A stretch of DNA of 64,000 bases from Promethearchaeota archaeon. GTDB taxonomy: Archaea > Asgardarchaeota > Lokiarchaeia > Sigyniarchaeales > SOKP01. Within the stretch, counting starts at the first letter, position 1; the number at the start of each line of letters is the position of its first letter. The notes beneath the pieces were generated by a model. The model had not been told where the DNA came from and did not search any database. It saw only the letters and a list, made by a program, of their open reading frames with translations. Both the position numbers and the translations under genes were made by a program. The stretch lies in assembly GCA_011364925.1 (NCBI GenBank), contig RDOA01000012.1, positions 15,048 to 79,047 on the forward strand, written 5' to 3'. Below are positions 2,028 to 19,876 of this stretch, piece by piece.

Positions 2028-3164
2028 CTATCTTAAGCTATATAATGGAAATTCAGTTCCATTTACTGCCGCTTGCACATATGGAGAGATTGGGCCTCGA
2101 CCTAAAGCCATTATTCTTATCTTAGATCCTAATGATGGATTTAGGGAAGTCCCGAATTTAAGTGAAGCTTCTTCAGGAATTTCACTTGATATTGTTGAGA
2201 TAATTCTATCAATTTTAGACAAAGATAATTGATGATCTCCCGAAACTGAAACAATGCATTTGTCAACTTTCTTAGTGTCGGGTTCTAAGAGAGGATTATG
2301 CAGTGCCAATTTTGACTTTTTTATAAGATCAGCTTCTTCCCCTAGAGATTCAGTTATACCGATTAATCCTGAAGGTAAATCCCCCTTTTTTTCAAGAACT
2401 TTTCTTACATCAGCGTAATCAATGTTTATCAGACCACAGTTATTAATTAAGCCAATTATTTCTTTTATAGACCTAATTAAAACTTCGTCCATTACCTTAA
2501 ACCCAGCTAAAATTGGCAATTTTTGGTTAAAACGAAGTAGATTATCGTTTGGAATAGGTATTAAGGTATCAGAATATTTAATTAGTTCTTTTAAACCTTT
2601 ACTTGCTCTTAATCTTCTTTCTGTTCCTTCGGATGTAAAGGGAACCGAACAGAAAGAAACAATGGTTGCCTTATTCTTTTTTGCTTCTCGGGCAATAACA
2701 GGTGCTGCCCCAGTACCAGTGCCTCCTCCCAAGCCAAATGTTAAAAACACAACATCAGCGTTTAACACTTGAGATAGGCGATCGACATCCTCCTCAGCTG
2801 CAGCATTACCAATACTAGGATCGTTTCCTGACCCTAAACCGTTACATGTTTCCTTTCCAATTAATAATTTTTGATTTGAGCTAGAATAATACAAATCATG
2901 TGCATCAGTATTGATATTTAGAGTTTCAACAAATTCTGAATCTATGTCCTGCATTCGAGAAACAGTATTATTACCGGCTCCACCCACCCCAATGACTAAC
3001 GATTTTATTTTTAAAACTTTCAATAAATCAGAAAGGTACGTATCATTATCTAAATTCGAAGAATTATTAGAATTCACATTATGATGGGCAATTTCGTTAA
3101 ATCTAGATCTTACCGATACTCGTGAGTTTACGATTTCGCTTATATCAAAGGTATCTTCATCCAT
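2028..3164 (-). CDS. ftsZ: Cell division GTPase FtsZ (tubulin/FtsZ family)
   Basis: GVGGAGNNTVSRM, NTDAHDL, the tubulin signature GLGGGTGTGAAPVIA, and PFTSEG. N-terminal N/S-rich extension. Confidence 0.9.
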   Translation of the reverse strand: MDEDTFDISEIVNSRVSVRSRFNEIAHHNVNSNNSSNLDNDTYLSDLLKVLKIKSLVIGVGGAGNNTVSRMQDIDSEFVETLNINTDAHDLYYSSSNQKLLIGKETCNGLGSGNDPSIGNAAAEEDVDRLSQVLNADVVFLTFGLGGGTGTGAAPVIAREAKKNKATIVSFCSVPFTSEGTERRLRASKGLKELIKYSDTLIPIPNDNLLRFNQKLPILAGFKVMDEVLIRSIKEIIGLINNCGLINIDYADVRKVLEKKGDLPSGLIGITESLGEEADLIKKSKLALHNPLLEPDTKKVDKCIVSVSGDHQLSLSKIDRIISTISSEIPEEASLKFGTSLNPSLGSKIRIMALGRGPISPYVQAAVNGTEFPLYSLR

Positions 3165-5147: not shown

Positions 5148-6221
5148 TTAAATACCATTTGCTTTTAATTTAGACCCTAGCTCAATCCATTCTTTAGCTT
5201 TGTCAATATTTCCTAACTTCTCATGGCAACGCGCCGCTGATTCCCAAAAATCTACTTCTGAAGGGTCGAGAGAAACAACTTTATCGAAGTGAATCAATGC
5301 TTTTTTATAATTATTTTTTACATCGCAATATATCTTCCCTAATTTCTTAAGAGCATTTATATTATCTGGATCCATTTTCAGAGTATTTTGATAATAAAAA
5401 ATAGCCTTATCGTAATCATGTAACGCGTTATAACTGAATGCTAAATTTTCGTATAGCACCGGATCTTCCTCTTGGAGTTTTAAGGCTTCCTTATAACAGT
5501 TTATTGATTTTTCATAGTCTTCTTTAAAGGTATAAGAAAGACCAAGATTATTCCAAGCTTCAATGAAGGTAGGGTCGATTTCTGTCGCTTTTTTATACGA
5601 ATCAATAGCTAAATCGTAGTTGTTTGTCTCATACGCAACGTCTCCTAAATCAAACCACAATTCAGCATTATTAGGGTCAAGATCGATGGCTTTTTTATAA
5701 TACTTTATTGCTTCATCATAGTTCTGAGTATCGTAATATATTATGGCAAGATTGTTATGGAGAAGAAGCTCATCCGGATTAATCTTTAAAGCTTTTTTAT
5801 AGCAATTTATAGCTTCTTCATACTGTTCCTTGTCTCTGTAGATTAAAGCAATATTATTCCAAACATCTGTATAGCTTGGTTCGTATTCTAAGGCGATTTT
5901 GTAATATTTTAATGCATTATCATGATCTTCTAAATCTTCGTATGCAAATCCCATGTTATAGTAAGCAACTGCATCATCAGGGTCTATTTCAATTGCTTTT
6001 TGATAGCATTTTATTGCTTCTTCATATTGGCGTAGCATGCTAAATGAGAGTCCAAGATTATTCCACACTTCTGAAAAATAGGGGTTGATTTCTATAGCCC
6101 TTTCATAAGCTTCTATTGCTTCCTCAAATGCGTTTTCATCGTAATACGCATCTGCTAAATTGATCCACGCATCAACATCATTAGGATCTAATTCTGCTGA
6201 CTTTTTGTATCTCTCAATCAT
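5148..6221 (-). CDS. Tetratricopeptide (TPR) repeat protein
   Basis: About ten tandem 34-aa repeats of the form W.NLG..Y....YEEAI..Y.KAIEIDP. Confidence 0.9.
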   Translation of the reverse strand: MIERYKKSAELDPNDVDAWINLADAYYDENAFEEAIEAYERAIEINPYFSEVWNNLGLSFSMLRQYEEAIKCYQKAIEIDPDDAVAYYNMGFAYEDLEDHDNALKYYKIALEYEPSYTDVWNNIALIYRDKEQYEEAINCYKKALKINPDELLLHNNLAIIYYDTQNYDEAIKYYKKAIDLDPNNAELWFDLGDVAYETNNYDLAIDSYKKATEIDPTFIEAWNNLGLSYTFKEDYEKSINCYKEALKLQEEDPVLYENLAFSYNALHDYDKAIFYYQNTLKMDPDNINALKKLGKIYCDVKNNYKKALIHFDKVVSLDPSEVDFWESAARCHEKLGNIDKAKEWIELGSKLKANGI

Positions 6222-6292
6222 TTTAAAATCAGATAATCTATAGAAAAATAAAGTTTGATTACTATTATTTTTTTTGGATTTTTAAAATATTT

Positions 6293-7339
6293 TTAATTAC
6301 TAGCAATAACTATCATTTTATCATGAATTTGGTCTGTCAACAATATTCTCAGATGGGGTTCATCAGTTTTAAATCTTACTTCTTCTAACTTACCCTCAAC
6401 GAGTACAGACTCGCCTTCAATTGCCTGTTCACAAAACCTTCCTCGAAAAGAGCTAACTTCACTTATGTTATCTAATTTGATACTTTTTCCAATAATTTTG
6501 CTTTCTAGCACTTTTACACAGCTAATTTCATATGAACAGGGAGTAAAGATTGAATTGGTTGAATCTATTAGATTTGCTTTTACTTTAATCCTTCCTAGAT
6601 TTTTGAATTGATAATCGTAGTATGTTCCCTTCCAGTCATTAGGATCTTTTATATACCTGATAAAGAAATCGATTCCATGGTATTTTCCTTGATGTAACTT
6701 CCTTTTTTCACTCTTTAAAAAACTCTCGAAACTAATGTTAGAACCTCCTACCCTCCATTTATAGTGGTCTTTATATTCAGATAAGTTGTAGGATCTACAA
6801 TCGTTTGGAGTGAGAAGAATTTGTTTTAACTTATCTTGAAACTCTAAAATATTATGAGTTCCATATATCATTATATCTATATCAGAATCAGCCAAACCCA
6901 ATCCAATCATTGGTGATCCAGAAATTCCAATTGCATCTTCTGGTATTGATCCGTCTGTAATTAATAATTTACAAAGATTTCTGGAATGAAGCTCCAGTTT
7001 TGTTAATTCTTTTTTCAAATTAAGCAATTTATAATATTCTTTGGGAGTGTATATTTTCTCTATATCTCCATTTTTTACGCCCTGAACTCTTAAATCAAGT
7101 TCCTTTGAAAAAAAAATAAATTGAGGGTATTTTTCTTCGAGTTTCAAATATCTTTCGTCCAATGAATAGATTTTTCTATATTTTCTGCCTTCCTTTATTC
7201 GTTCACCATTCTGATCGGGAACAAACCTTAAAAAACAAATTTTGCGATCTCGAGGATGGTGATAACCTTTTATATCAAAAAACAAATGGTCATCTTTGGT
7301 TTCGAGGTAATCCCCTTCAATTCCTTTTGGAATGTTCAT
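6293..7339 (-). CDS. Pol-beta superfamily nucleotidyltransferase with C-terminal OB-like domain (COG1665-like, tentative)
   Basis: GISGSPMIGLGLADSDIDIMIYG gives the GS...DxD signature of minimal nucleotidyltransferases. The C-terminal third is beta-rich and OB-like. Confidence 0.55.
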   Translation of the reverse strand: MNIPKGIEGDYLETKDDHLFFDIKGYHHPRDRKICFLRFVPDQNGERIKEGRKYRKIYSLDERYLKLEEKYPQFIFFSKELDLRVQGVKNGDIEKIYTPKEYYKLLNLKKELTKLELHSRNLCKLLITDGSIPEDAIGISGSPMIGLGLADSDIDIMIYGTHNILEFQDKLKQILLTPNDCRSYNLSEYKDHYKWRVGGSNISFESFLKSEKRKLHQGKYHGIDFFIRYIKDPNDWKGTYYDYQFKNLGRIKVKANLIDSTNSIFTPCSYEISCVKVLESKIIGKSIKLDNISEVSSFRGRFCEQAIEGESVLVEGKLEEVRFKTDEPHLRILLTDQIHDKMIVIASN

Positions 7340-7359: not shown

Positions 7360-8463
7360 TTAATATTTTGAAGGTGTCTTCGATTTTATTTGATACTTGG
7401 GAATTTCTTTTATTTTTTGTAATTCTCTTTCAAACTCTTTTTTCTCTTTAAGAAATCTCTCCTTATCACTATCTAACTTTTGCCTTTCTTTTCTTATTGA
7501 AATCTTCTCATCTTCTATTTTTGATTTTTCTTTTTCTATATTTTTTATGTCATCGTTTAATTTTTTCAATTTCTTTTCTGAATTCTGAATTTTATGTTCT
7601 AATGAATAATAAGCGTCTTCTGCTTGAGGCACCTTTCTGTCTAATTCTTTCAGTCGAGCTTCTTGCCCTTTTTTCTTACGTTCTAGTTCTCTAACATCAT
7701 TATCAACATTTTCTTTAAATTTTCCTAGTTTTTCTTTCTTTTTCTCAATATCGCGGGCTTTAAGGTTCAAATTTTGTTTCTTGTATCGAACTTTTTCTTT
7801 TTCATCTTTTAACCTTCTTTTTTCATCTTCAATTCGATTTTTTTCATCTGTGATTTCTCTTTTCAAATTATTAATTTCTTTGTTTAAATTATCCCGTTCT
7901 CTTGTTAAGTTTTTAACTTCGTTTCTTAAGTCCATTAAATTGTTTTCTAACTTTTCAATTGTTCTTTCTAATGCGTCTTCTCTCCGTTCCATTCCAGGTA
8001 ATTTCGTTTTTATTTCTTTAATTCTTTCTTTTGCTTTTGCTTTTTCTTTTTCTATATTTCTCTTTTCGTTCTCTAGTTCTTCCCTAATGCCATCTAACTT
8101 CTCTTGATATCGCTCTAAATCAGCAGTTTTCTGATCTAGCTCTCTCTCTTTCGCATGTAGTTCGTTTTTACTACTGTTTATTTCGTTTCTCATTCTATCT
8201 AATTCCAATTTTAAGTCCTCGTATTGCTTTTGAAGTTCTCTGACTTCAAGTTCTTTTTGTTTTCTTTTTTTTTCTAATTCTTCAATATTTTCGTTATATC
8301 CGTCAATTTTATTGATTACTCGCTCCCATTCATTCTTCTCCTTATTCAATTTAATTCTTTCTTCTTTAATTTTTTTAAGAAGCTTCCCATCAACGCTTTT
8401 ATCTAACTCTTCCTCAGGAGTTTTTTCTCGGATTTGATACTTTGGAATTGGTTTTTCCTTCAT
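7360..8463 (-). CDS. Long K/E-rich coiled-coil protein with IPKYQI(R/K)xKTP motifs at both termini
   Basis: 367 aa, almost entirely heptad-like charged sequence. The N-terminus reads PIPKYQIREKTPE and the C-terminus reads EIPKYQIKSKTPSKY. Confidence 0.7.
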   Translation of the reverse strand: MKEKPIPKYQIREKTPEEELDKSVDGKLLKKIKEERIKLNKEKNEWERVINKIDGYNENIEELEKKRKQKELEVRELQKQYEDLKLELDRMRNEINSSKNELHAKERELDQKTADLERYQEKLDGIREELENEKRNIEKEKAKAKERIKEIKTKLPGMERREDALERTIEKLENNLMDLRNEVKNLTRERDNLNKEINNLKREITDEKNRIEDEKRRLKDEKEKVRYKKQNLNLKARDIEKKKEKLGKFKENVDNDVRELERKKKGQEARLKELDRKVPQAEDAYYSLEHKIQNSEKKLKKLNDDIKNIEKEKSKIEDEKISIRKERQKLDSDKERFLKEKKEFERELQKIKEIPKYQIKSKTPSKY

Positions 8464-8643: not shown

Positions 8644-9045
8644 ATGGATTTTGACGAGGAATTTGATAAGGAGTTCGACGAAGAATTGGAGGAGGATTTT
8701 GACGAAAACTTAGATGAAGATTTTGACGAACCTACTTCAAAAACTCCTCCTGACGATGTTAAAGTTAAGACTCCAGAACCTCATCTCCCTCCTGAAGGAA
8801 AAAAGATATCTGTATTTTTTCTTTCTACTATTGGTCCGGGAGAAAAAAAACAAAAATTACTAGTATATACTGGTAATAAAGTTGGAGACATTAAAGATAC
8901 TGTGGCAAATTTGTTTGCGCTAGATCCATCCGATTTCCATTTGTCTTCAGGAGGAGTGACAATGGATGAGACATCTTACCTAAGCGATTATAATGTAGAT
9001 GAAGGAGATGACATATTATTAATTCCTGCTAGCGTAGCAGGTTGA
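8644..9045 (+). CDS. Ubiquitin-like beta-grasp protein A, acidic repeat N-terminal extension, C-terminus ...LLIPASVAG-stop
   Basis: The C-terminal 80 aa (KKISVFF...DIKDTV..LF..DP.DFHLSSGGVTMDE...DYNV..GDDILLIPASVAG) has ubiquitin-like spacing and ends in Gly. It is a close paralog of 10898-11230. GGTG RBS about 9 nt upstream. Confidence 0.75.
   Translation: MDFDEEFDKEFDEELEEDFDENLDEDFDEPTSKTPPDDVKVKTPEPHLPPEGKKISVFFLSTIGPGEKKQKLLVYTGNKVGDIKDTVANLFALDPSDFHLSSGGVTMDETSYLSDYNVDEGDDILLIPASVAG
8650..8733 (+). repeat. Seven tandem tetrapeptide-coding repeats (F/L)-(D/E)-x-(E/D/N/P) inside Ubl-A
   Basis: Read as FDEE FDKE FDEE LEED FDEN LDED FDEP. At DNA level gattttgacga-like units recur every 12 nt. 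Confidence 0.8.
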
Positions 9046-9086: not shown

Positions 9087-9875
9087 CTATTTTTTTCTCG
9101 ATGGTATTAACGCGATCTCGTCATCGTCGTCAATAGAATAATCCCTTATCTGCTTTGATTCGTCTAACAATATCCCACCGGTGGATAGGAGAAAATCTTC
9201 TAAAGCATAATCAAATAGAATTCCGACTTGTTCCTTGAGGATATTTACTAATTCTGAAGTTTCAATAACGATTATTTTGGTTTTCTCGCCAGGTTCGACT
9301 AATGATCTTACATAAACGCGAATCTTATCATCCATTCCAATAGTGGTCAGTGGTGGGTTGTACTGCACTTTTTCATTAGTTCTTTCCTTATATTGCAAGA
9401 TATCTTTAATTAACCGTTTTCTTTCGCTAGGTTCAAAATATAGCATTTCTCTGATAAAAAAGATTTTATCCATCTTTGATAACCCTAGCAAATCAATTTT
9501 GTCTAATTCTTCTCTATTGAACAATGTAAAAATGTAATCGTCGAAGGTCTCAATTTTTTCAAAAGTTTCATCGCTATCTGCATATTGATCTACTAATGGC
9601 ATAGCTTCGAAGTAATCTTCGATTAGTTCGCTTGTAGTTCTATGTATTGGATTTAACTTTTTAGCGTATTTATCTTTTTTTATCTTTTTAGCGGGACTAC
9701 CCGTAGAAGATACAACGGTATAGATCGTGCCCGTTGACAATACCGCAACGCTCCCAACAGTTAGAAAGAGGAATAGAGGTAAACTTTCTATCTGCATTAA
9801 GAAAAAAATCAAATAGAGTATTGCAAAAACAATGTAAAGAGTTAAAATACTTAGAATTCTAAATTTTTTTTTCAT
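9087..9875 (-). CDS. Membrane-anchored protein with C-terminal ubiquitin-like domain (no terminal Gly)
   Basis: Two N-terminal hydrophobic helices. The C-terminal 80 aa (KIRVYVRSLVEPGEK.K....V.ILKEQVGILF...EDFLLSTGGILLDES..IRDYSIDDDDEIALIPSRKK) aligns position by position with the two free Ubls. Confidence 0.65.
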   Translation of the reverse strand: MKKKFRILSILTLYIVFAILYLIFFLMQIESLPLFLFLTVGSVAVLSTGTIYTVVSSTGSPAKKIKKDKYAKKLNPIHRTTSELIEDYFEAMPLVDQYADSDETFEKIETFDDYIFTLFNREELDKIDLLGLSKMDKIFFIREMLYFEPSERKRLIKDILQYKERTNEKVQYNPPLTTIGMDDKIRVYVRSLVEPGEKTKIIVIETSELVNILKEQVGILFDYALEDFLLSTGGILLDESKQIRDYSIDDDDEIALIPSRKK

Positions 9876-9953: not shown

Positions 9954-10628
9954 TTATATATCATAAGGAACTGATTTTCTAATATTCTCATATCTCTTGG
10001 AGTCTAATTTATATAAATCTCTTTTTTTATCTTTTTCAATTGATATTAATTTTAAATTCATTAAAATTTCAAGATATTTTTTAATTGTATTGTAATTACC
10101 TTTTAGGATAGAAGCTATTTCAGTAATTTTCAAAGAATTATCTTCACTCTTTAATAGATTTATAATCTCACGAACGATTTCTTGCTTTAAATAATAATAT
10201 ATCTCGTCTAAATCTGGATCTGAATCGTAATCAAAAATAATTCTTTGATTCTCTATTTTCTTCGACCGTGTAAATCTGAACTTTTCTAAACATGATAAAT
10301 GCCATAACGCTTGATTACTTCCAATATTTATTGCTTTCATTATTTCATTTACATTGGATGGAGTCTTTCGGATATAATTATAAATTTCATTTCGGATTGG
10401 ATGTTCAATAATGTTATTTTTCATTAATCTAGTTCCAGGGATTAGAATTCTTTTTTTAATAAGGTTTTTAATAAAGATTTCGATACTATTTCTGTTCAAT
10501 TCAGGATTAGCTCTTACCCTATTATTGATGAACACCACGATATCTTCGACAGAAAAGAACGGTTTCTTTTTTAAATATTCCTCTATTAGACCACAGACAA
10601 TAGATTGAAGGCTATCAGGCTTGCTCAT
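9954..10628 (-). CDS. Multi winged-helix (wHTH) protein, ArsR-like central module
   Basis: IRNEIYNYIRKTPSNVNEIMKAINIGSNQALWHLSCLEKFRF is an ArsR-type wHTH. A second wHTH follows (KITEIASILKGNYNTIKKYLEILMNLKLISIEKDKKRDLYKL), and there is a possible third at the N-terminus. Confidence 0.6.
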   Translation of the reverse strand: MSKPDSLQSIVCGLIEEYLKKKPFFSVEDIVVFINNRVRANPELNRNSIEIFIKNLIKKRILIPGTRLMKNNIIEHPIRNEIYNYIRKTPSNVNEIMKAINIGSNQALWHLSCLEKFRFTRSKKIENQRIIFDYDSDPDLDEIYYYLKQEIVREIINLLKSEDNSLKITEIASILKGNYNTIKKYLEILMNLKLISIEKDKKRDLYKLDSKRYENIRKSVPYDI

Positions 10629-10897: not shown

Positions 10898-11230
10898 ATG
10901 AGTTTTGAAGAAGATTTTGATGAGGAATTAGAACCAGTTAAATCTAAAACCCCATCAAGTAAAACACCCTCAACAGGTAAGAAGTTGACTTTATATTTTA
11001 TGTCAACTATTGGTCCTGGTGAAAAGAAGGAGAAGTTAACTGTCAATGATGCAAATCGGGTAAGTGATATTAAACAGACATTAGGAAATCTATTCGGTCT
11101 TGATCCAGATGAATTTCACTTATCATCTGGAGGTGTTACAATGGATGAGAATAGTCAATTAAAAGATTATAATGTCAATGACGGCGACGACATTCTTTTG
11201 ATTCCAGCAAGTACTGCGGGATTAAATTAA
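10898..11230 (+). CDS. Ubiquitin-like beta-grasp protein B (first gene of the E1-E2-JAMM-RING operon), C-terminus ...LLIPASTAG-LN
   Basis: Same core as Ubl-A (KKLTLYFMSTIGPGEKKEK...DEFHLSSGGVTMDEN..DYNVNDGDDILLIPASTAGLN). Short acidic FEED FDEE LEPV N-terminus. AAGGAAG RBS-like element upstream. Confidence 0.8.
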   Translation: MSFEEDFDEELEPVKSKTPSSKTPSTGKKLTLYFMSTIGPGEKKEKLTVNDANRVSDIKQTLGNLFGLDPDEFHLSSGGVTMDENSQLKDYNVNDGDDILLIPASTAGLN

Positions 11231-11309: not shown

Positions 11310-12545
11310 ATGGTGATAATATTGCATAAGGATTCAGATTTTTTTGCAAAGGGATTGTCAGAAGAAGAGAGAGACTTATACGATCGTCAATTTCGTTTAG
11401 AAGGATGGTCCCAAAAATTAGTAAAAAAATCGAGAGTTTTAATCGCGGGAGTAGGAGGGTTAGGATGTGAAATTGCTAAGAATTTAGCTATGTTAGGGGT
11501 AGGCCATATAGATCTCGTGGATCTAGATATCATCGAACACTCTAACTTAAACCGCCAAGTTCTGTTTGCAGGCGCAAAGCTGGGAGAACCGAAAGCAATT
11601 GCGGCTGCAAAAAAGTTAGCTGAAATTAATCCTAATATTATTGTTAATGGATACCATTCATCGTTAGAACGATTAGAGCCCTCTCTCTACTATAATGCTG
11701 ATGTTGTTATAGGGGGACTTGATTCAATGAATGCGAGATTAAATTTAAACGCTCAATGTATTAGATTTAGGAAACCATTAGTAGATGGAGGGGTTTCTGG
11801 CTATTATGGACATGTATATACAATATTCCCATATCGGAATGCATGTTATGAATGCAATCCGCTGCCAGATGTGGCAAGTGATGAAATGGCAGCTTGTACC
11901 GTAGTTGGTATCCCTCGAAAAAGAATTCATTGCGTTTTTAAAGGAGATATGGCCTTCAAAGAAAAATTTGATAGAGATCCGAATCCTAAAAATGTAGAAG
12001 AGATAAGGTTTATTCAAAAAGTTGCAAATGAACTTGTTACAAAACACAATTTCTTTCCTGAATATACAGAAGATGATATTGTAAAAATTATTGATCGCCA
12101 TGATCCAGGAATTATAACAATAAACGCAACAATATCAGCTTTACAATCTCACGAAGCGATTAAAATCCTTCATTGGAAAAACGGTCATAAAGGATTAGGT
12201 GAACCAATTATAAATTATATGATATTTAATGCTATGACAATGAAATTATACCACATTGAAAAGAAGAGAAATCCAGAATGTTCTCAATGTGGTAAAAATG
12301 TGAGACGCGTTGTAATTAAAATGAGAGAAAACTCTCCATGCATGAATATAATTAAAATATTACAAAAAAATGGATACAAATTAGAATCGGAATTTGAACC
12401 AGTATTAACTCTTTTGGATTTTAACGATATAATTGTTCTAGATTTAGAGCAAAATCCAATTCAAAATGGTTTGAGGATTTACGAATTTCTCACGGTTGCG
12501 GGGTTTGAAGGAGGAGAAATATACGTAACCTTAAAATTTAAATAA
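11310..12545 (+). CDS. Ubiquitin-activating E1-like enzyme (ThiF/MoeB/UBA family)
   Basis: YDRQ.RL..W, the Rossmann motif VLIAGVGGLGCEIAKNLAMLGVGHIDLVDLDIIEHSNLNRQ, the zinc pairs CYEC and CSQC, a candidate catalytic Cys in MAACTVVGIP, and an extra C-terminal domain of about 80 aa. Confidence 0.9.
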   Translation: MVIILHKDSDFFAKGLSEEERDLYDRQFRLEGWSQKLVKKSRVLIAGVGGLGCEIAKNLAMLGVGHIDLVDLDIIEHSNLNRQVLFAGAKLGEPKAIAAAKKLAEINPNIIVNGYHSSLERLEPSLYYNADVVIGGLDSMNARLNLNAQCIRFRKPLVDGGVSGYYGHVYTIFPYRNACYECNPLPDVASDEMAACTVVGIPRKRIHCVFKGDMAFKEKFDRDPNPKNVEEIRFIQKVANELVTKHNFFPEYTEDDIVKIIDRHDPGIITINATISALQSHEAIKILHWKNGHKGLGEPIINYMIFNAMTMKLYHIEKKRNPECSQCGKNVRRVVIKMRENSPCMNIIKILQKNGYKLESEFEPVLTLLDFNDIIVLDLEQNPIQNGLRIYEFLTVAGFEGGEIYVTLKFK

Positions 12546-12611: not shown

Positions 12612-13139
12612 ATGAGTATAAGAAGTAGTCGAGTCTCTCGAGATTTTGCGGGACTTAAAAGATTGCTAAAGGAAGGTACCATCATCCAATTAAAGCCATT
12701 TAATCCAAAAAAAAAGAGTATTGATCACTTAGCTTTAACGGTTAAAGGTCCTAAAGGAACAGCTTACGCAGGAGGATTGTTCAGATTGGAAATGAAGTTT
12801 CCTGTTCAGTACCCTAAACAACCTCCTTTTGTGAGATTGCACACTCCTATTTGGCATCCAAATTTTTGGCCAAAACCTAATGAATATAAAGGACAAAGAA
12901 ATATTTGCTTAGCGTTAGTAGATCCGTCTCTAGTGGGGACAAAAGGTGGATGGAGCCCTTCGAAAACAGCTGTTACAGTTGTTCAAGCAATCATTGCTAT
13001 GCTCAACACGCGAGGTAAGTATGTCAATCCAACTGATGTGTTTAATAAAAAAGCAGCGATAGAAATGATAAAGGATCCTAAAATGTTTGAAAAGAAAGTG
13101 AAAAGCTTAACTAAGAAATACGCTAAGGATAAATGGTGA
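12612..13139 (+). CDS. Ubiquitin-conjugating E2-like enzyme (UBC fold)
   Basis: GPKGTAYAGGLFRLEMKFPVQYPKQPPFVRLHTPIWHPNF....NICLALV carries the canonical UBC core. The HPN motif is at 12855-12863 and the catalytic Cys codon is at 12906-12908. Confidence 0.85.
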   Translation: MSIRSSRVSRDFAGLKRLLKEGTIIQLKPFNPKKKSIDHLALTVKGPKGTAYAGGLFRLEMKFPVQYPKQPPFVRLHTPIWHPNFWPKPNEYKGQRNICLALVDPSLVGTKGGWSPSKTAVTVVQAIIAMLNTRGKYVNPTDVFNKKAAIEMIKDPKMFEKKVKSLTKKYAKDKW

Positions 13140-13146
13140 TTATGGA

Positions 13147-13956
13147 ATGGGCATTGACGAAAATAATTCTAGTTCCATTAGAGATGCGATAAAACAGAGA
13201 ATTAAAGAGAAAATTAAAAAAGAACTCCTCGAAGAAGTGTACACTGAATTACAATTAGAAGAATTACAAGAAGAAATAACCGCTGAATTTATCGATGTAA
13301 AACCGATAAATCACTCTAAATATATCAAAGCTAACCTTGAACCAATTCCAATGGAACCCGTAGTAGAAACTGTGGCTAGAAGCGATAAAATTGAAGCGAC
13401 TATAACAATCACGATAAAAGCAGTTCTTAAAATCGCCAGTCATTCTCTCAAATATGCGCATTCAAAAATACCTAGAGAACAATGGGTAGAAGTAATTGGC
13501 TTACTCGCTGGAAAGTATAATGAGTCTAACGGAATATTACATATTGAAGATGCTTATCCAATGGGGCATGGTACAGCGGTGTATGCTGAAATAAAGGATT
13601 ATAAGAATTATGTTAGAGCTTTTAAAGATATCAAGAAAAAAAAGGGCTTATTCATAGCAGGATGGTATCATAGCCACCCAAGTTATAGTTGCTTTATGTC
13701 AAGGGAAGATTTAAGCACACAGGCTAGATATCAAAAGCTTTGGGACAAAGCCGTTGCACTCGTAATCGATCCATTTTTAATTAACGGAAGATCAGTTGGA
13801 TTTGAAATTTACCGCGCAAATTTTAAAACAAAGAAATGGTTTTCAGTGCCTTTTGAAATTAAAGGGCATTTAGATATTCGCATGTTACCGGAGATTATAG
13901 AATTCATGAATCCGATAATAGAAGGGAAACCAGCCTATTTAGAATATGATGAGTAA
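13147..13956 (+). CDS. JAMM/MPN+ metalloisopeptidase (Rpn11/CSN5-like)
   Basis: The upstream Glu is in EVIGLLAG. The JAMM motif HSHPSYSCFMSREDL (H-x-H-x7-S-xx-D) lies at 13669-13710. Charged N-terminal extension of about 80 aa. Confidence 0.9.
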   Translation: MGIDENNSSSIRDAIKQRIKEKIKKELLEEVYTELQLEELQEEITAEFIDVKPINHSKYIKANLEPIPMEPVVETVARSDKIEATITITIKAVLKIASHSLKYAHSKIPREQWVEVIGLLAGKYNESNGILHIEDAYPMGHGTAVYAEIKDYKNYVRAFKDIKKKKGLFIAGWYHSHPSYSCFMSREDLSTQARYQKLWDKAVALVIDPFLINGRSVGFEIYRANFKTKKWFSVPFEIKGHLDIRMLPEIIEFMNPIIEGKPAYLEYDE

Positions 13957-13988: not shown

Positions 13989-15110
13989 ATGGTTAAAAAT
14001 AAAACCTTAACAATCATTTTTGCTATTTTTTTAGTTATTGGGGTAATTCATGGTTTAATCTCTCTTTCTTTTTTAAATTTTGCAACCTGGGTTTTAATAG
14101 GATTATGGGTAATATTTACAATAAAATTATATGTAAACATAAAACGGCACCGTGAGTTTAATTCGCCACATAATACTGCATTTTTTGTCATTATTCCGTT
14201 AACTATTGGAATATTTTACTCAATTTGGGGCTATTATACAGGAATTCTAGGAGAAAATTTACTCGGTGGAGTATATTTTAGTCTATGGAGCTTAATTTTT
14301 GCTTTTCCTTTTGTGATCTATGGATCCTACTCATTATATCGATGTTTCAAGAAATACAATGTAATATATTTTGGGACCAAAGCTGTGAAAGCCCGAAAAT
14401 TGGGATACATTCTTTCTTTTTCAGTTCTTATTTTTATTTTGATTTATTGGATAAGTTTTTATAGCGCAATTGAGAGTTTTCCGTTGGATTTGAATCTCTT
14501 AATACTATTTATAGCTACAATTTTAGTCGTAATAATATTTGGTTTTACTAATTCTCGTCCATCATTACCTACTTTAACACGCGATTATATTGCAAATCGT
14601 ACTAGAACAATAAACAATTTAACTACGCCTACAACACAACGACAGCGTTTACGGACTACAAGAGTAACCGCTCCTACTCCATCTACTAGAGCAACAACAC
14701 AAACTTCAAGATCGAGAACTCATTCGTCAAGAATAACCCCTACATCACATAGACAAACTACAAGAACTAAAACAACAAAAGTTACACACACAACTACTGT
14801 TAAACCTACTTCCAAAATTCGGAATATTAATAATTATAAACCCAGAGCATCGTATTTGTCATTAGAAGATTTTAAGTGTATCTTTTGTTTTAAGCTACCA
14901 AAACTTCCTGATGACAAGGGTCGAGGAGTGGTTATATGTCCAAATTGCAGATATCCCTCCCATGCGGATGAATTCAAAGATTGGATGCGCACTTCAAATC
15001 TTTGTTCGCGTTGTAGTGCTCCTATTCCTACCAGCTTTAGGCGTAATCCCAGTATAGTAAGTGTAAAGAACTACATTATTGCTTATAAACAATTGTTAAA
15101 ACGCAAATAA
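13989..15110 (+). CDS. Polytopic membrane protein with T/R/S-rich linker and C-terminal RING-like zinc finger (putative membrane E3)
   Basis: About six hydrophobic helices (13989-14570). Low-complexity linker TTPTTQRQRLRTTRVTAPTPSTRATTQTSRSRTHSS... (about 14598-14820). The finger is CIFC-x17-CPNC-x4-H-x3-F-x2-W-x7-CSRC (14877-15014). Confidence 0.6.
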   Translation: MVKNKTLTIIFAIFLVIGVIHGLISLSFLNFATWVLIGLWVIFTIKLYVNIKRHREFNSPHNTAFFVIIPLTIGIFYSIWGYYTGILGENLLGGVYFSLWSLIFAFPFVIYGSYSLYRCFKKYNVIYFGTKAVKARKLGYILSFSVLIFILIYWISFYSAIESFPLDLNLLILFIATILVVIIFGFTNSRPSLPTLTRDYIANRTRTINNLTTPTTQRQRLRTTRVTAPTPSTRATTQTSRSRTHSSRITPTSHRQTTRTKTTKVTHTTTVKPTSKIRNINNYKPRASYLSLEDFKCIFCFKLPKLPDDKGRGVVICPNCRYPSHADEFKDWMRTSNLCSRCSAPIPTSFRRNPSIVSVKNYIIAYKQLLKRK

Positions 15111-15218: not shown

Positions 15219-15779
15219 ATGAATAAAGAAAGCGTACAAGAACTAATCACACAACTTATTAAGGAGATTGAAGGGAATGAGGGAGAATTACGCCCTGCCA
15301 CGAAAGAAACTCCAAGACGAGTAGCCAATGCGTATAGCGAAATATTTGATGGCTATCGAACAGACATAGACAAGGAAGTGAAAGTCTTTAAAGCAAACTA
15401 TAGCGAGATTATTGTATCTAAAGATATTAAGTTTTATAGCATGTGCGAGCACCATATTCTCCCTTTCTACGGTACTGTTGACATTATATATATGCCAGGC
15501 GAGTATCTTTTAGGAATTTCAAAATTCGCACGAGTAGTTAATTATTTTTCTCATAGATTAAATGTTCAAGAAAAGATGACAGATGACATTGCAAATTATT
15601 TAATGACCTGTTCGTTAAAACCAAGAGGAGTGATGGTTATAGTCAAAGGTACTCATTTATGCGAGATAATGAGGGGTGTAAAGCAGTCTAATCCTTTAAT
15701 AATAACATCTGCTATAAAGGGAATATTTAAAACTAACCTTGCTACGAGATCAGAAGCGTTGGAACTATTAAATTTATAA
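15219..15779 (+). CDS. folE: GTP cyclohydrolase I (FolE type IA)
   Basis: TP.RVA.AY.E.F.GY, the hallmark SMCEHHILPFYG, and QERLT-like VQEKMT. 186 aa. Confidence 0.9.
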   Translation: MNKESVQELITQLIKEIEGNEGELRPATKETPRRVANAYSEIFDGYRTDIDKEVKVFKANYSEIIVSKDIKFYSMCEHHILPFYGTVDIIYMPGEYLLGISKFARVVNYFSHRLNVQEKMTDDIANYLMTCSLKPRGVMVIVKGTHLCEIMRGVKQSNPLIITSAIKGIFKTNLATRSEALELLNL

Positions 15780-15837
15780 CCCTAAACATATTATTACTGA
15801 CAATAGTTATTTTTTTATCAAAATCATAAAAATTTTT

Positions 15838-17019
15838 GTGTGGGTTATGTCCAAAACCTTCATACATAGTAATTACGGTTTGATTGGAGTCGGCTTAGAA
15901 TTTAAAAAGAACATCACAGTCGAAGTTAATGAAGATGGAATAATTAATAATCTTTCTTATGATGATGTAAGAGAAGATATCAATATTTCGTCGAAACATC
16001 CTACTTTTTTATTAATACCTGGTTTGATTAATTCTCATATTCATATTTGTGACAGTTTTGCTAAAGAACAAGGTTTTAATAAAAATTTAATAGAAGTTGT
16101 CGCCCCTCCTAATGGGATTAAACATAAATTGCTAGAAAATACTTCAGAAGCGATCAAAGTACAAGGAATAAAAGAAGCAGTTAAGGATATGTTAGCTAAT
16201 GGCATAACTCTGTTCGTAGATTTTAGAGAAAATGGAATAATTGGCGTTAACATATTAAAAGATGCTTTAGAAAATTCACCAATTAATTGCATTATTTTAG
16301 GAAGATTCAAAAATCTTGAAGAAGCAGAGGTTATTATAAAAAAAGCTAATGGAATTGGATTTGCAAGTTATGATCAGCTTTCTCAAGATCATAAAAATAT
16401 AATAATTGGATTAAAAAATAAATATAGAAGCAAGATTATTGCTTGTCACGATGCAGAGTTATCACGGAACGAGTTACTATTGAAGGATATAATAAGAGAT
16501 GGAATAATTGATGTTGTTATTCACGGGACGCACTATACGATGGAAGATTTAAAAAAGATTAAGGAAAACCATATAATGTTAGTTTTATGCCCAAGATGTA
16601 ATGGTTATTTTGGGTGTGGTTTTCCACCTATTAAGGAATTATGCTATCTAGAAATCCCTGTTAGTCTTGGAACAGATAATGTAATGGCAAATAACATTGA
16701 TTTATTTGAAGAGATGCGTTATTTATATAGGATTTTCCGTGTATTGGCTGCTAATAAAAGTAAGAATATTTTAACATCAAAAGAGCTGTTAAAAATGGTA
16801 ACTATTAATGCTGCAAAAAACTTTGGTCTGTTAGAGAAATTTGGTTCTATTTCAGTGGGAAAATATGCGGATTTTTCTCTATTAAGCCTTTCTGATTCAA
16901 ATTATTATTCACATGAGTTTGATAGTGAAAATATTTATAACATAATTGTTCAAAGAACAAGGGCAGAGAATATAAAAAGGACTTATATTAAAGGTGAGGT
17001 AGTATCTGAAAGAAAGTGA
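15838..17019 (+). CDS. Amidohydrolase-superfamily deaminase-type enzyme (cytosine/guanine/MTA deaminase-like)
   Basis: PGLINSHIHI (HxH metal site), ACHDAE (HxxE motif of the deaminase subgroup), VIHGTH, and LGTDNV (terminal Asp). Confidence 0.75.
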   Translation: MWVMSKTFIHSNYGLIGVGLEFKKNITVEVNEDGIINNLSYDDVREDINISSKHPTFLLIPGLINSHIHICDSFAKEQGFNKNLIEVVAPPNGIKHKLLENTSEAIKVQGIKEAVKDMLANGITLFVDFRENGIIGVNILKDALENSPINCIILGRFKNLEEAEVIIKKANGIGFASYDQLSQDHKNIIIGLKNKYRSKIIACHDAELSRNELLLKDIIRDGIIDVVIHGTHYTMEDLKKIKENHIMLVLCPRCNGYFGCGFPPIKELCYLEIPVSLGTDNVMANNIDLFEEMRYLYRIFRVLAANKSKNILTSKELLKMVTINAAKNFGLLEKFGSISVGKYADFSLLSLSDSNYYSHEFDSENIYNIIVQRTRAENIKRTYIKGEVVSERK

Positions 17020-17029
17020 ACATCCTTAT

Positions 17030-17677
17030 GTGATTTTAAGTGCTGCTATGACAATTGATGGAAAAATTGCATCAAAAAATGGAGATCCAGAAATTTCTGA
17101 TGAAGAGGATTGGAAATCTGTTCATAAACTTCGAACAGAGGTGGATGCGATTATGGTTGGTAAAGGATCCATACTGAAAGATAATCCCAAATTACATATA
17201 AAATATTACGATCATAACGGGTACTATCGTATTGTATTGGATAGCAATCTTTCCATTCCAATTGATTCGAATATTATTACCTATGAACCCGATACTTATC
17301 CAACTATTATAGTAACAACCGAAAACGCTCCTGTTGATCGAATTAGGGAATTTGAAGCAAAAAATGTAATTATTATTAAGTCTGGAAGTGGGAATGAAGT
17401 TGATATTGTTAAATTGATGCCCATTTTATACGGAAAAGGCATAAAGAGGATCCTTTTAGAAGGTGGGGCCAGATTAAATTGGAGTTTTATCAAAAATCAT
17501 TTAGTAGACGAAATTAGAATCACAATAGGACCCTGGATGGTAGGGGGTAAGGATGCCTTGAGTTTAGTGGAAGGAGAGGGTTTCGCAAAAATGTGTGAAA
17601 GCCCAAGATATTGCTTATCAAATGTGAAGAAGAACAATAACTATATAACTCTTTATTATAAGAAAGAAAAACCATGA
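17030..17677 (+). CDS. RibD C-terminal-type reductase (2,5-diamino-6-ribosylamino-4(3H)-pyrimidinone 5'-phosphate reductase, ArfC/Rib7-like)
   Basis: ILSAAMTIDGKIASKNG....S.E.DW..VH.LR..VDAIMVGKG.I..DNP.L and ILLEGGARLNWSF. Apparent GTG start; the in-frame HPYV upstream suggests the start is uncertain. Confidence 0.75.
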   Translation: MILSAAMTIDGKIASKNGDPEISDEEDWKSVHKLRTEVDAIMVGKGSILKDNPKLHIKYYDHNGYYRIVLDSNLSIPIDSNIITYEPDTYPTIIVTTENAPVDRIREFEAKNVIIIKSGSGNEVDIVKLMPILYGKGIKRILLEGGARLNWSFIKNHLVDEIRITIGPWMVGGKDALSLVEGEGFAKMCESPRYCLSNVKKNNNYITLYYKKEKP

Positions 17678-18801
17678 AAACCACTAAAGAAATAGAACAA
17701 TTGGAAAAGATACCAATAAAAGCGCTGAAAGAAAAAATTAAAAGTATAAGAGAAGAACTTCCTAAAGAAGAACAGAATATTGTTACTTTTTCTAAGAACT
17801 TTACACTTTCTCTTTCAAACTATTGTCAAAATCAATGTGGATACTGTTTCTATAACCAGCATGTATCTAAAGAGATTCTAGAACAGTATATTGCACTAAT
17901 TGAAGAAAATAAAATTAATGATTTAATCCAAGCAGCAATAAAATTTGGATGCACAGAAGCTTTACTAATGTCTGGTGAATCTCCTGATAAGTTCGAAGTA
18001 GTTCAAAAAGAATTGGAAAAAAGAAACTATAGCAATTTCAACCAATTTGTGAAAAGATTAAGCGAAAAGTTGTTAGAATTCAATCTTTTACCCCATACAA
18101 ATATAGGTGCGCTCTCATTCGATGAATTAAAATATTTAAAGGATACAAATGCTAGTATGGGTTTAATGATTGAGAGTACCTGTGAAACTCTTTCCAAACC
18201 TGGTGGTGTTCATGAAAATTCACCAAATAAAACGCCAGAAACTAGAATTAAACACATTATAGACGCGGGAAAGTTAAAGATTCCCTTTACTACAGGCTTA
18301 TTATTAGGAATTGGTGAGAGATTTCAAGATCGCATAAAGGATTTGTACTTAATCAAAGAACTTCATCAAAAATATGGTCACATCCAAGAAGTAATAATAC
18401 AAAATTTTACAGAAAAATCGAGGATTCCCTATCATCCGAAAAAACCAATAAATATAGAAGAAACTCTCAAAACTGCGGGTGTTGCAAAATTAATATTTGA
18501 AAACGATATAGCGATTCAAGTTCCTCCTAATTTAATTCAAAATTACGAAAAGGAAGCTTTAGAAATGGGAATTGATGATTTTGGAGGCATATCTCCATTT
18601 ACTATAGATTATATTAACCCCCACCACGCTTGGCCAAAAATACCACTCTTAGAAAAGTTATGCATGAGTTTTGGATATGAACTTAAGGAAAGGCTTCCTA
18701 TATATAAGAAATTTATAGATAAAAACGGATTTTGTTCTGAAATTATTAAAAAAACGATAAAAAGGATTGATCTGAATGTTAGAAGCGAAAAAGATTCTTA
18801 G
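17674..18801 (+). CDS. cofG: FO synthase subunit 1 (CofG, radical SAM)
   Basis: VTFSKNFTLSLSNYCQNQCGYCFY matches the CofG-type CxxxCxxC context rather than the NRNINxTN context of MqnC/MqnE. ATGA overlap with the upstream gene. Confidence 0.75.
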   Translation: MKTTKEIEQLEKIPIKALKEKIKSIREELPKEEQNIVTFSKNFTLSLSNYCQNQCGYCFYNQHVSKEILEQYIALIEENKINDLIQAAIKFGCTEALLMSGESPDKFEVVQKELEKRNYSNFNQFVKRLSEKLLEFNLLPHTNIGALSFDELKYLKDTNASMGLMIESTCETLSKPGGVHENSPNKTPETRIKHIIDAGKLKIPFTTGLLLGIGERFQDRIKDLYLIKELHQKYGHIQEVIIQNFTEKSRIPYHPKKPINIEETLKTAGVAKLIFENDIAIQVPPNLIQNYEKEALEMGIDDFGGISPFTIDYINPHHAWPKIPLLEKLCMSFGYELKERLPIYKKFIDKNGFCSEIIKKTIKRIDLNVRSEKDS

Positions 18802-19876
18802 AAAAGCTGAAGATTCAGTTGAGATTAGCCCGGATGAAGCTTTAATCCTATTAAAAATCACGGGTAAAGATTTCACAGCTTTACAACAGACTGCTGATCA
18901 GATTTGTTTTGAGAAGAAGAATAATCTCGTAAGTTTTATCATAAATCGAAATATAAATTTTACAAATGTCTGTTATCAAGGATGTAAATTCTGCTCGTTT
19001 TCTGTTTCAAATAAAAATAAAGACAGTTTTTTAAAAACTATTGAAGAAATAAGAGAGGATGTTACTGAAGCTAAGAACGCAGAATGCACTGAAGTATGCA
19101 TCCAAGGAGGGATTAATCCAGAATTAGATTTCGACTATTATTTAGAGATTTTGAAAATAGTAAAGGAGATTGATTCAAATATCCATACTCACGCTTTTTC
19201 TCCTCAAGAAGTGTTCTATATGTCAAAATTATACGGCTCATCGATTTATGATGTGTTAAAGGAGTTAAAAAAAGCAGGTTTAGATTCTATGCCAGGAACA
19301 GCAGCAGAAATTTTAGTAGATGATATCAGAAAAGTTATTTGTCCAAATAAAATTACCACTTCTCAATGGATTGATGTGATAAAATCAGCACATGAATTAG
19401 GAATCCCCACTACTTCGACTATGATGTATGGTCACATTGAAGATTTAAAGGACAGAATAGAACACCTCGAGATTTTAAGGAATATACAGAAAGAAACTTC
19501 CGGGTTCACCGAATTTGTCCCTCTACCCTTTGTTAAAGAAAATCCTCTTTTATCTAAATTGACAGATTTCCCTCTAAAACCTAGCTATGGAATGGCAGAT
19601 TTAAAATTGTTTGCGGTAGCAAGAATTTTCCTCAACAATTACATTGATAATATTCAATGTTCTTGGGTAAAGTTGGGCCCAAAATTCGCTCAAGTTTCTC
19701 TATATTACGGAGTAAACGACTTTTCTGGTACGTTAATGGAAGAGAACATTTCAAAAAGCGCAGGAGCCGAATTTGGAGAATATTTAGCTCCGGAAGAGAT
19801 GATCTCTATCATTAAAGCTGCCGGCAAGAAACCTGTGCAGAGGGATACGCTCTATAAATTATTAAAATTCTACTGA
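18776..19876 (+). CDS. cofH: FO synthase subunit 2 (CofH, radical SAM)
   Basis: VSFIINRNINFTNVCYQGCKFCSF. Overlaps cofG by 26 nt. Pairing with a CofG-type gene favours CofH over MqnE. Confidence 0.7.
   Translation: MLEAKKILRKAEDSVEISPDEALILLKITGKDFTALQQTADQICFEKKNNLVSFIINRNINFTNVCYQGCKFCSFSVSNKNKDSFLKTIEEIREDVTEAKNAECTEVCIQGGINPELDFDYYLEILKIVKEIDSNIHTHAFSPQEVFYMSKLYGSSIYDVLKELKKAGLDSMPGTAAEILVDDIRKVICPNKITTSQWIDVIKSAHELGIPTTSTMMYGHIEDLKDRIEHLEILRNIQKETSGFTEFVPLPFVKENPLLSKLTDFPLKPSYGMADLKLFAVARIFLNNYIDNIQCSWVKLGPKFAQVSLYYGVNDFSGTLMEENISKSAGAEFGEYLAPEEMISIIKAAGKKPVQRDTLYKLLKFY

Follow-up and report, generated by a model that had tools for sequence, protein, structure and literature searches.

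Here we describe a gene from an Asgard archaeon whose product combines a six-helix membrane domain with a C-terminal zinc finger of the RING type. The gene lies in a 64,000-nucleotide stretch of Promethearchaeota archaeon contig RDOA01000012.1 (hereafter 'the window'), where it is the final cistron of an operon that also encodes a ubiquitin-like protein (Ubl), a Ubl-activating enzyme (E1), a Ubl-conjugating enzyme (E2) and a JAB-family metalloprotease. Taking the evidence as a whole, we lean towards the view that the gene product is a membrane-resident, E2-recruiting component of the Asgard Ubl operon, that is, a RING-type ubiquitin ligase (E3). The best reading of the data is that it serves, at minimum, as an E2-docking subunit of the Asgard Ubl system and would take the operon position that belongs to soluble RINGs in Caldiarchaeum and Helarchaeia. 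The architecture, RING homology, conservation of ligand columns, predicted topology and operon linkage of the protein are computed here; its zinc stoichiometry, metal binding by Glu328, docking of the E2, ligase activity and the nature of its substrates are inferred.

Conservation and metal ligands of the finger

In its C-terminal region, the window protein carries the pattern C297-I-F-C300-x16-C317-P-N-C320-x4-H325-A-D-E-F329-K-D-W332-x6-C339-S-R-C342. A preliminary description of this DNA, made from its letters alone, had recognized the same overall motif, although it read two of the spacers one residue too long (x17 instead of x16 between the first two CxxC pairs, and W-x7-C instead of W-x6-C). 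It had also counted seven obvious Cys and His ligands, a count that stands, with Glu328 at the eighth position. A search of 5.8 billion proteins returned 365 relatives, and the best 120 of these 365 were analysed. All are full length, exhibit 58-97% identity, are unnamed or called 'hypothetical', and have no precomputed Pfam domain; in every source examined, this conserved family is annotated merely as 'hypothetical' or left unnamed, with no Pfam domain. The spacing and ligands of the finger are identical in all 120 close homologs.

More distant relatives were collected with a profile search of 1.84 billion cluster representatives, which yielded 123 proteins at E<=1e-3, and 122 of these were checked for the motif. 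The spacing that follows the second CxxC is uniform in 102 of the 122, and the spacer between the first and second CxxC ranges from x11 to x17. Sixty-three representatives, selected by a motif with E or H at position 328, are full-length finger carriers of 340-470 amino acids (aa). Nine positions (C297, C300, C317, C320, H325, E328, W332, C339 and C342) are each 100% conserved in these 63 proteins, and P285, D294 and Y362 are 98-100% conserved, while overall identity to the window protein is 15-69% among the representatives in a 51-member alignment. Because its spacing and ligands are kept in homologs, and because it is the sole RING-like motif in the window, we conclude that the finger is not a chance pattern.

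When aligned by HMMER to the RING-H2 domains of RNF24 and EL5, C320 falls on Cys3, H325 on His5, E328 on Cys6, and C339 and C342 on Cys7 and Cys8, whereas F329 and W332 coincide with the central helix's hydrophobic residue and Trp. The position of His4 is held by Y322, which is not conserved in the family. An extra invariant Cys, C317, resides three residues ahead of C320, such that the ligand 3/4 region reads C-x2-C rather than the C-x-H of RING-H2 domains. From this alignment, C317 presumably stands in for the absent His4. The RING protein of Caldiarchaeum likewise has its C3 and H4 out of register, and carries an additional Cys termed 'C3B' (Hennell James et al., PMC5654768).

We propose from the pattern of conserved residues that a cross-brace could be formed in which site 1 consists of C297, C300, H325 and E328, and site 2 of C317, C320, C339 and C342. 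When WDR19 is aligned, it turns out to have both the second and the third CxxC pair but no equivalent of His325, a pattern that fits the sharing of one site by these two pairs, as the cross-brace predicts.

The preliminary description had suggested that the Asp of the HAD triplet might be the missing eighth ligand. This assignment had to be abandoned, as position 327 varies freely across the family and can be D, S, G, N, T, Y, P, R, L, V, A, Q, H, E or K. All 120 close homologs, in contrast, have Glu at the adjacent position 328, as do all 63 representatives (a set preselected for E or H there), and the residue is His in soluble cousins that match the Pfam family zf-RING_2 (H-x2-H). Since Glu328 is invariant in these two sets, aligns with ligand 6 of RING-H2 domains and is replaced by His in the soluble cousins, it is probably the eighth zinc ligand.

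Relationship to RING domains

Profile comparisons with the sequences of the PDB place the finger among RING-H2 domains. The profile of the close family, whose alignment is too shallow, matched IFT144 (E=0.05) and eS27 alone. A finger profile derived from membrane-type members only matched RNF24 (2ep4) at E=9.5e-6, EL5 at 1.1e-3 and RNF4 at 0.01, and a profile to which soluble cousins had been added matched RNF24 at 1.8e-8 and EL5 at 1e-6, with Arkadia, RNF165, RNF38, RNF13, listerin, ZNRF3, synoviolin and AMFR ranking below these two. The most distant relatives (P0229 and P0235-P0242) have no hydrophobic helices, and several of the most distant soluble relatives exceed the gathering score of zf-RING_2 over the full length of the model. 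Among 51 diverse membrane-type members, zf-RING_2 is matched by 12 (best E=9.9e-6) and Prok-RING_1 by 13 (best E=8.4e-5), in all cases below threshold; sub-threshold matches to Prok-RING_1 are also present in 32 of 32 close members.

An AlphaFold2 model of residues 281-373 (predicted local distance difference test, pLDDT, of 73) exhibits two short strands, a helix at residues 326-335 and then the last CxxC. These elements are flanked by a helix at 292-298 and an amphipathic helix at 359-372 that includes Y362. A Foldseek search of the PDB with this model returned nearly exclusively RING and U-box domains, alongside RING-like domains from IFT-A and GATOR2, at probabilities of at most 0.96. Examples include RNF4 (1.7 Å over 40 columns) and the HRD1 finger (1.3 Å over 35), and RNF38, EL5, Bmi1/Ring1B, TRIM, RNF8 and LubX were matched as well. 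The target-normalised TM-scores of the RING/U-box matches are approximately 0.5-0.6, and the same domains head the list of matches to the full-length model. The longer matches include RNF8, RNF168, TRIM32, TRIM69 and Bmi1, whose RINGs dimerise via flanking helices; by analogy, one can speculate that the finger described here might dimerise in this manner.

The RING-H2 profile matches and the RING/U-box fold matches thus bear out the earlier suggestion that the finger is of the RING type. We conclude that it is a divergent RING of the RING-H2 lineage, and our confidence in this assignment is good with regard to homology and fold class, and moderate with regard to structural detail.

Residues at the positions through which RING domains engage their E2 partners are also retained. 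In loop 1, close homologs without exception have I298 and F299, and I298 remains 83% conserved when diverse members are considered. The fully conserved W332 aligns with the Trp of both RNF24 and EL5. A hydrophobic residue in loop 1 and a Trp in the helix are the E2-contact positions of canonical RING E3s. In the small RING finger protein (srfp) of Caldiarchaeum, the corresponding residues I30 and W58 are needed for activity, and their mutation impairs ubiquitylation (PMC5654768). Both the Caldiarchaeum and the Helarchaeia operons have soluble RING proteins that work as E3s in vitro (PMC5654768; bioRxiv 10.1101/2023.07.25.550441).

Membrane domain, tether and topology

The preliminary description had placed the finger on a polytopic membrane protein with about six hydrophobic helices, and both points agree with our analysis. 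Hydropathy identifies six segments, and a full-length AlphaFold2 model, built from 121 sequences, contains six confident helices (residues 4-25, 28-53, 63-80, 99-121, 135-160 and 168-186; pLDDT ~85-95). The predicted cytoplasmic loops hold nine Lys and Arg residues, whereas the three opposite loops hold no Lys or Arg and three acidic residues. By the positive-inside rule, both termini of the protein, including the finger, are predicted to be cytoplasmic. All K/R-rich loops and the basic tether lie on the same face of the membrane, which would put the finger where the E2 resides.

No known relatives of the membrane domain were identified. It matches no Pfam family, either in the window protein or in the 51 diverse members, and Foldseek found no fold relative in the PDB, where the best matches (rhodopsin and CDP-diacylglycerol synthase) have probabilities of at most 0.06. 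Profile comparison with PDB sequences likewise gave no match, producing only single-helix noise from ABCB6 and a G-protein-coupled receptor. Specifically, the membrane domains of Hrd1, gp78 and Doa10 were matched neither by Foldseek nor by the PDB profile search. We see no evidence for homology to the membrane domains of these proteins or of MARCH, and the likeness to them appears to be one of layout only. Sub-threshold matches to PFF1_TM, the membrane domain of a vacuolar/ER (endoplasmic reticulum) M28 protease, occur in six of the 51 diverse members (best E=2.2e-6). The match of P0176 residues 110-305 to this model scores 21 bits against a cutoff of 32.3 and is unconfirmed; the similarity may be compositional.

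In the diverse alignments, the membrane domain is kept across the family chiefly as a hydrophobic pattern, to which are added P107 and a motif in the loop between helices 2 and 3. This loop is the best-conserved motif of the domain, with the family consensus E..YYR..NA..AS..F...P and the form HREFNSPHN...F..IP in the window protein.

The region that joins the membrane domain to the finger had been described as rich in T, R, S and P and strongly basic, and residue counts agree. Of the 81 residues at 205-285, T accounts for 27, R for 12, S for 7, P for 6 and K for 5, and both D and E are absent. The whole tether of the window protein measures ~93 aa, has a net charge of +18 and is disordered in the AlphaFold2 model (pLDDT <50), and a juxtamembrane helix, TRDYIAxRTR (residues 198-212), is conserved within it. 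As a feature, the tether is kept in the 63 representatives, with a median length of 111 aa, a median net charge of +20 and a minimum of +9. Pfam and NCBIfam matches of the protein to pneumovirus glycoprotein G, US29 and Endomucin were rejected as low-complexity artefacts of the composition of this linker.

Operon context

The stop codon of the JAB gene and the ATG of the membrane RING gene are separated by 32 nucleotides that include no T-run. Two T5 runs reside 3' of the stop codon of the membrane RING gene, and folE, which comes next, has an AT-rich, TATA-like stretch ahead of it. Given the T-run-free spacer upstream and the T5 runs after the stop, the membrane RING gene appears to close the unit as its last cistron. 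Translation of the 64-kb window in all six frames reveals no other RING-like motif, and there is no separate small RING in the operon.

When one genome per species was scanned, 160 genomes proved to contain relatives, and the best 80 of these 160, which were examined, are all Asgard (Promethearchaeota) assemblies. Named sources of homologs include Lokiarchaeota, Helarchaeota, Hodarchaeota and Kariarchaeaceae. Synteny was evaluated by tblastn of the window proteins against the fetched loci, 67 of which have at least 3.6 kb upstream of the match. In 66 of the 67 loci, namely all those among the 67 that carry a homolog, the genes directly upstream, on the same strand, encode E1, E2 and JAB; the 67th is an unrelated locus of a soluble cousin. 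In every one of the shorter loci, JAB at least adjoins the homolog. The order Ubl-E1-E2-JAB-membrane RING is kept in relatives that score 72-118 bits against the family profile, and it is also found in a Helarchaeota contig and in a Kariarchaeaceae (Heimdall-group) contig. The downstream gene is not conserved, and since folE is present there in only ~8 loci, the linkage is to the operon. Thus, the gene was correctly recognized as the last of a ubiquitin operon: it is conserved after Ubl-E1-E2-JAB, in place of the small soluble RING of Caldiarchaeum.

Several further features of these loci concern the operon itself. A winged-helix ArsR/HTH_5 protein (9954-10628, minus strand; E=2e-7) is encoded divergently just upstream of the Ubl gene, a position kept in 61 of 67 loci, and it is a likely regulator of the operon. 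A membrane-anchored protein with a Ubl domain (9087-9875, minus strand; Pfam ubiquitin E=4e-4, sub-threshold) is encoded on the opposite strand in the majority of Loki-clade loci, ~4.9 kb upstream of the membrane RING gene. Its presence beside a membrane RING recalls Herp/Usa1 with Hrd1, by analogy only. The free Ubls encoded at 10898-11230 and 8644-9045 (both plus strand) have acidic low-complexity N-terminal extensions and no Gly-Gly end. The operon Ubl terminates in ...PASTAG-LN and the second copy in ...PASVAG. The ...STAG-LN end implies a two-residue pro-peptide, which is presumably removed by the JAB protease. No genes for ESCRT components are present among the open reading frames (ORFs) scanned near the operon.

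Table 1. Coordinates in the window of the membrane RING gene, its parts and the operon genes that precede it.
Feature	Position	Strand	Basis and remarks
Whole gene, membrane RING protein	13989..15110	+	ATG start, 373 aa; final cistron of Ubl-E1-E2-JAB unit
N-terminal six-helix transmembrane domain, residues 1-190	13989..14558	+	Hydropathy and AlphaFold2 helices; predicted N-in/C-in
Conserved cytoplasmic loop between helices 2 and 3, HREFNSPHN	14148..14174	+	Invariant in Loki-clade alignment
Basic, polar, disordered tether, residues 191-284	14559..14840	+	Composition; pLDDT <50
C-terminal RING domain with flanks, residues 285-373	14841..15107	+	AlphaFold2, Foldseek, conservation of P285, D294 and Y362
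Finger core, C297-C342	14877..15014	+	Motif; columns 100% conserved
Glu328 codon, candidate eighth metal ligand	14970..14972	+	Column conservation
Operon Ubl	10898..11230	+	Pfam ubiquitin E=4e-7; syntenic in 65/67 loci
E1-like ThiF-family activating enzyme	11310..12545	+	Pfam ThiF E=4e-58; NCBIfam Ube1 subfamily E=6.5e-33
E2 (UQ_con), presumed partner of the finger	12612..13139	+	Pfam E=7e-25; HPN motif and downstream Cys
JAB/Rpn11-like metalloprotease, directly upstream	13147..13956	+	Pfam JAB E=2e-15

Proposed function and alternative explanations

If the protein is a membrane-resident E3, its parts could cooperate as follows. The six-helix domain would embed the protein in the cytoplasmic membrane so that both of its ends face the cell interior, and the basic, disordered tether of ~90 aa would hold the RING-H2-derived finger in the cytoplasm. 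The finger would bind two zinc ions in a cross-brace, one through C297/C300/H325/Glu328 and the other through C317/C320/C339/C342. The residues I298/F299 and W332 might then dock the E2~Ubl thioester of the operon, and the Ubl would thereby be passed more readily to lysines on proteins that lie in the membrane or close to it. In such an arrangement, the membrane domain would supply location and possibly the choice of substrate. As the preliminary description suggested, the protein would perhaps act on membrane or secreted proteins.

Several observations weigh against a functional RING E3. A scan of the window protein against Pfam and NCBIfam found no RING model above threshold: zf-RING_2 is matched at E=1.3 (9.8 bits, cutoff 27.3), Prok-RING_1 at E=0.079 and Zn_ribbon_15 at 0.013, all of which are sub-threshold. 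The individual E-values of the Foldseek matches are weak (0.06-0.5), and the stretch that carries the first CxxC has a pLDDT <50 in the full-length model and is among the least confident in the C-terminal model. Furthermore, the non-catalytic RING-like domain of the IFT-A component WDR19 matches approximately as well as EL5. With regard to the ligands, we know of no documented case of Glu serving in this role in a RING, and P0133 (418 aa), the only such finger-bearing representative noted, has Ala at position 328 (...AHADAF...). This Ala could reflect a sequencing error or a degenerate copy, or it could be a sign that the Glu is dispensable. In most RING E3s, a basic 'linchpin' that follows ligand 8 activates the E2~Ub conjugate. 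The residue directly after the last Cys is S343 in the window protein, S or N in 120 of 120 close homologs, and S, D, N, G, E or T in diverse members, and the soluble cousins carry K or R directly after the last Cys. Finally, Cys7 is followed directly by Ser in place of the usual Pro. In srfp, mutation of the linchpin R69 impairs the cascade (PMC5654768).

These considerations make a RING-like scaffold that has no catalytic effect on an E2 the main rival to our interpretation. The C-terminal RING-like domains of IFT-A, GATOR2, HOPS and alpha-COP are protein-protein docking modules, and the finger might similarly tether the Ubl machinery, or some other partner, to the membrane without E2 activation. 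The C-terminal zinc domains of WDR19/IFT144 are among its best sequence and fold matches, and there are sub-threshold Pfam matches to IFT121 zinc-finger domains, Zn_ribbon_15 and zinc_ribbon_16. The lack of a linchpin Arg or Lys and the presence of Glu as ligand 6 point in the same direction. However, the gene is strictly linked with those for E1, E2 and JAB, the window holds no other RING, and the canonical E2-contact positions are occupied by I298 and F299 without exception in close homologs and by W332 in all representatives. In addition, the soluble RINGs of sister operons are catalytic (PMC5654768). On this evidence, we consider a purely non-catalytic role rather unlikely.

Two other explanations fit the data less well than a scaffold does. 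The protein might chiefly be a target or receptor of the pathway, which binds the Ubl or is itself modified and so marks a site on the membrane for machinery that acts later. In keeping with this idea, the tether is long and accessible, the gene has a conserved co-location with that for the membrane Ubl-domain protein, and 29 of 32 close members exhibit sub-threshold matches to the ubiquitin-binding zinc finger zf_UBZ. Yet these matches span 13 residues around the last CxxC, with a best E=0.01 among the 32 members, whereas the likeness of the finger as a whole is to RING-H2; the tether, moreover, offers few lysines (five in 81 residues). A receptor role therefore seems highly improbable to us. 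We regard as extremely improbable the notion that the finger is a plain zinc ribbon with an extra CxxC, in which a single zinc is held jointly by the first two CxxC pairs, as it is in ribosomal protein eS27, and which together with the basic tether (net charge ~+20) binds nucleic acid or lipid and has no part in conjugation. The eS27 zinc ribbons do align, at E=0.011-0.6, and the Pfam DZR and Zn_ribbon families give sub-threshold matches, but the eS27 alignments cover the first two CxxC pairs only, whereas the RING-H2 matches are stronger and span all ligands as well as the Trp helix. The RING helix is present in the predicted fold, and WDR19 keeps the second and third CxxC pairs without His325, as expected for site 2 of a cross-brace. 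The operon linkage speaks against this reading as well, and an eS27-like family would leave unexplained the invariance of H, E, W and the last CxxC.

A more far-reaching version of the E3 interpretation, which we rate as decidedly unlikely in its entirety, is that these genes constitute an Asgard module for the ubiquitylation of membrane proteins. By analogy with eukaryotic systems, a C4-H-E-C2 membrane RING with a new six-helix fold, the membrane Ubl-domain protein and E1, E2 and JAB might tag membrane proteins for extraction or sorting and so prefigure ER-associated degradation and endosomal sorting. The membrane RING would then correspond to the Hrd1 layout, and the protein encoded at 9087-9875 to the Herp/Usa1 layout.

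Comparison with known systems

Like srfp of the Caldiarchaeum and Asgard operons, the window protein presents a RING-H2-type finger encoded in an archaeal Ubl/E1/E2/JAB cluster (PMC5654768; bioRxiv 10.1101/2023.07.25.550441), and the two share an offset ligand 3/4 region with an extra Cys, as well as the conserved hydrophobic residue of loop 1 and the Trp of the helix. Unlike the small soluble srfp, the window protein is a 373-aa integral membrane protein with six helices and a 90-aa basic tether, its ligand 6 is Glu, it has no basic linchpin equivalent to srfp R69, and its E3 role is predicted only.

In its layout, the protein resembles Hrd1 and gp78 (AMFR), in which an N-terminal multi-helix membrane domain is followed by a cytosolic, C-terminal finger of the RING-H2 type, and the fingers of synoviolin, yeast HRD1 and AMFR are among its sequence and fold matches. 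In the window protein, however, the finger is preceded, not followed, by the low-complexity region, which separates it from the membrane domain. As the membrane domains have no detectable similarity, the resemblance would be an analogy of architecture.

The ligand order Cys4-His-X-Cys2, with Cys as ligand 4 and His as ligand 5, is that of the RING-CH domains of MARCH and Doa10, and the H-x2-X-hydrophobic-x2-W motif of the finger is shared with RING variants. The spacing C-x2-C-x4-H-x2-X matches the PHD consensus. Unlike in MARCH and Doa10, the finger of the window protein is C-terminal rather than N-terminal. It has Glu as ligand 6, and its best profile matches are to RING-H2 and not to RING-CH or PHD, of which PHD21A is matched only at E=0.85.

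The RING-like domains of IFT-A (WDR19/IFT144 and IFT121/122) and GATOR2, which are among the best profile and fold matches, belong to soluble, coat-like proteins of beta-propellers and solenoids, where they are used for complex assembly. Unlike the finger described here, they have no operon or conjugation context, and WDR19 has no equivalent of His325. The most consistent sub-threshold Pfam match is to Prok-RING_1 (PF14446), a family that we take to have been defined from prokaryotic gene neighborhoods of ubiquitin-like proteins; only the first half of the model is matched.

Other neighboring genes

Downstream of the operon, the window carries a run of cofactor genes (15219-19876, plus strand) that begins with GTP cyclohydrolase I, as identified by Pfam. 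By correspondence to another locus (L001), the remainder of the run comprises an amidohydrolase, a reductase with a RibD_C domain and two radical-SAM genes, one of which has a CofH_C domain. These genes have no relation to the operon, and synteny between the two is only occasional. Upstream neighbors encode an FtsZ/tubulin-family protein (2028-3164), a protein with eight tetratricopeptide (TPR) repeats (5148-6221) and a 367-aa coiled-coil protein rich in K and E (7360-8463), all on the minus strand.

In two distant loci, an ORF of 143-145 aa with no Pfam match is found on the same strand 3' of the membrane RING gene (L003, 9211-9648; L004, 9202-9633). This ORF is not in the window, which has folE in its place. 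A Kariarchaeaceae contig (L087) encodes, at 6271-7113, a 280-aa protein with a weak zf-RING_2 match ~4 kb downstream of its membrane RING. One further locus (L013, DATKTW010000176.1) is labelled 'Candidatus Nanopelagicaceae bacterium' and holds an Asgard-type operon in full, including a copy of the gene that is 79% identical; it is most likely a mis-binned Asgard contig.

Implications

RING E3s in archaeal ubiquitin operons are already known, as are membrane RING E3s in eukaryotes. In the searchable literature, coverage of which is incomplete, we found no description of an Asgard membrane RING, and soluble RING E3s alone are mentioned. The preliminary description regarded membrane RING E3s as a eukaryotic hallmark. 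This may go too far, as Burroughs, Iyer and Aravind reportedly noted in 2011 that certain RING families of prokaryotes have transmembrane helices. What seems to be undescribed is the combination of a conserved polytopic membrane RING at the E3 position in archaea of the Loki, Hel and Heimdall groups, its C4-H-E-C2 ligand set, and a membrane domain that has no known relatives.

The ubiquitin operons of Asgard archaea are regarded as the seed of the eukaryotic ubiquitin system, and the E3 of these operons has hitherto been described or tested only as a small soluble RING. In genomes of Lokiarchaeia, Helarchaeota and the Heimdall group, the gene at the E3 position instead encodes a conserved integral membrane RING protein. 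With Glu occurring naturally at one of the zinc-ligand positions of its RING, and with no linchpin, this protein would be informative on the minimal requirements for RING catalysis. Membrane E3 ligases act in ER-associated degradation and in the ESCRT-dependent sorting of membrane proteins. If the membrane RING is active, Ubl tagging in these archaea would be organized at the membrane, and the protein would be a testable candidate for a prokaryotic forerunner or analogue of membrane E3 ligases.

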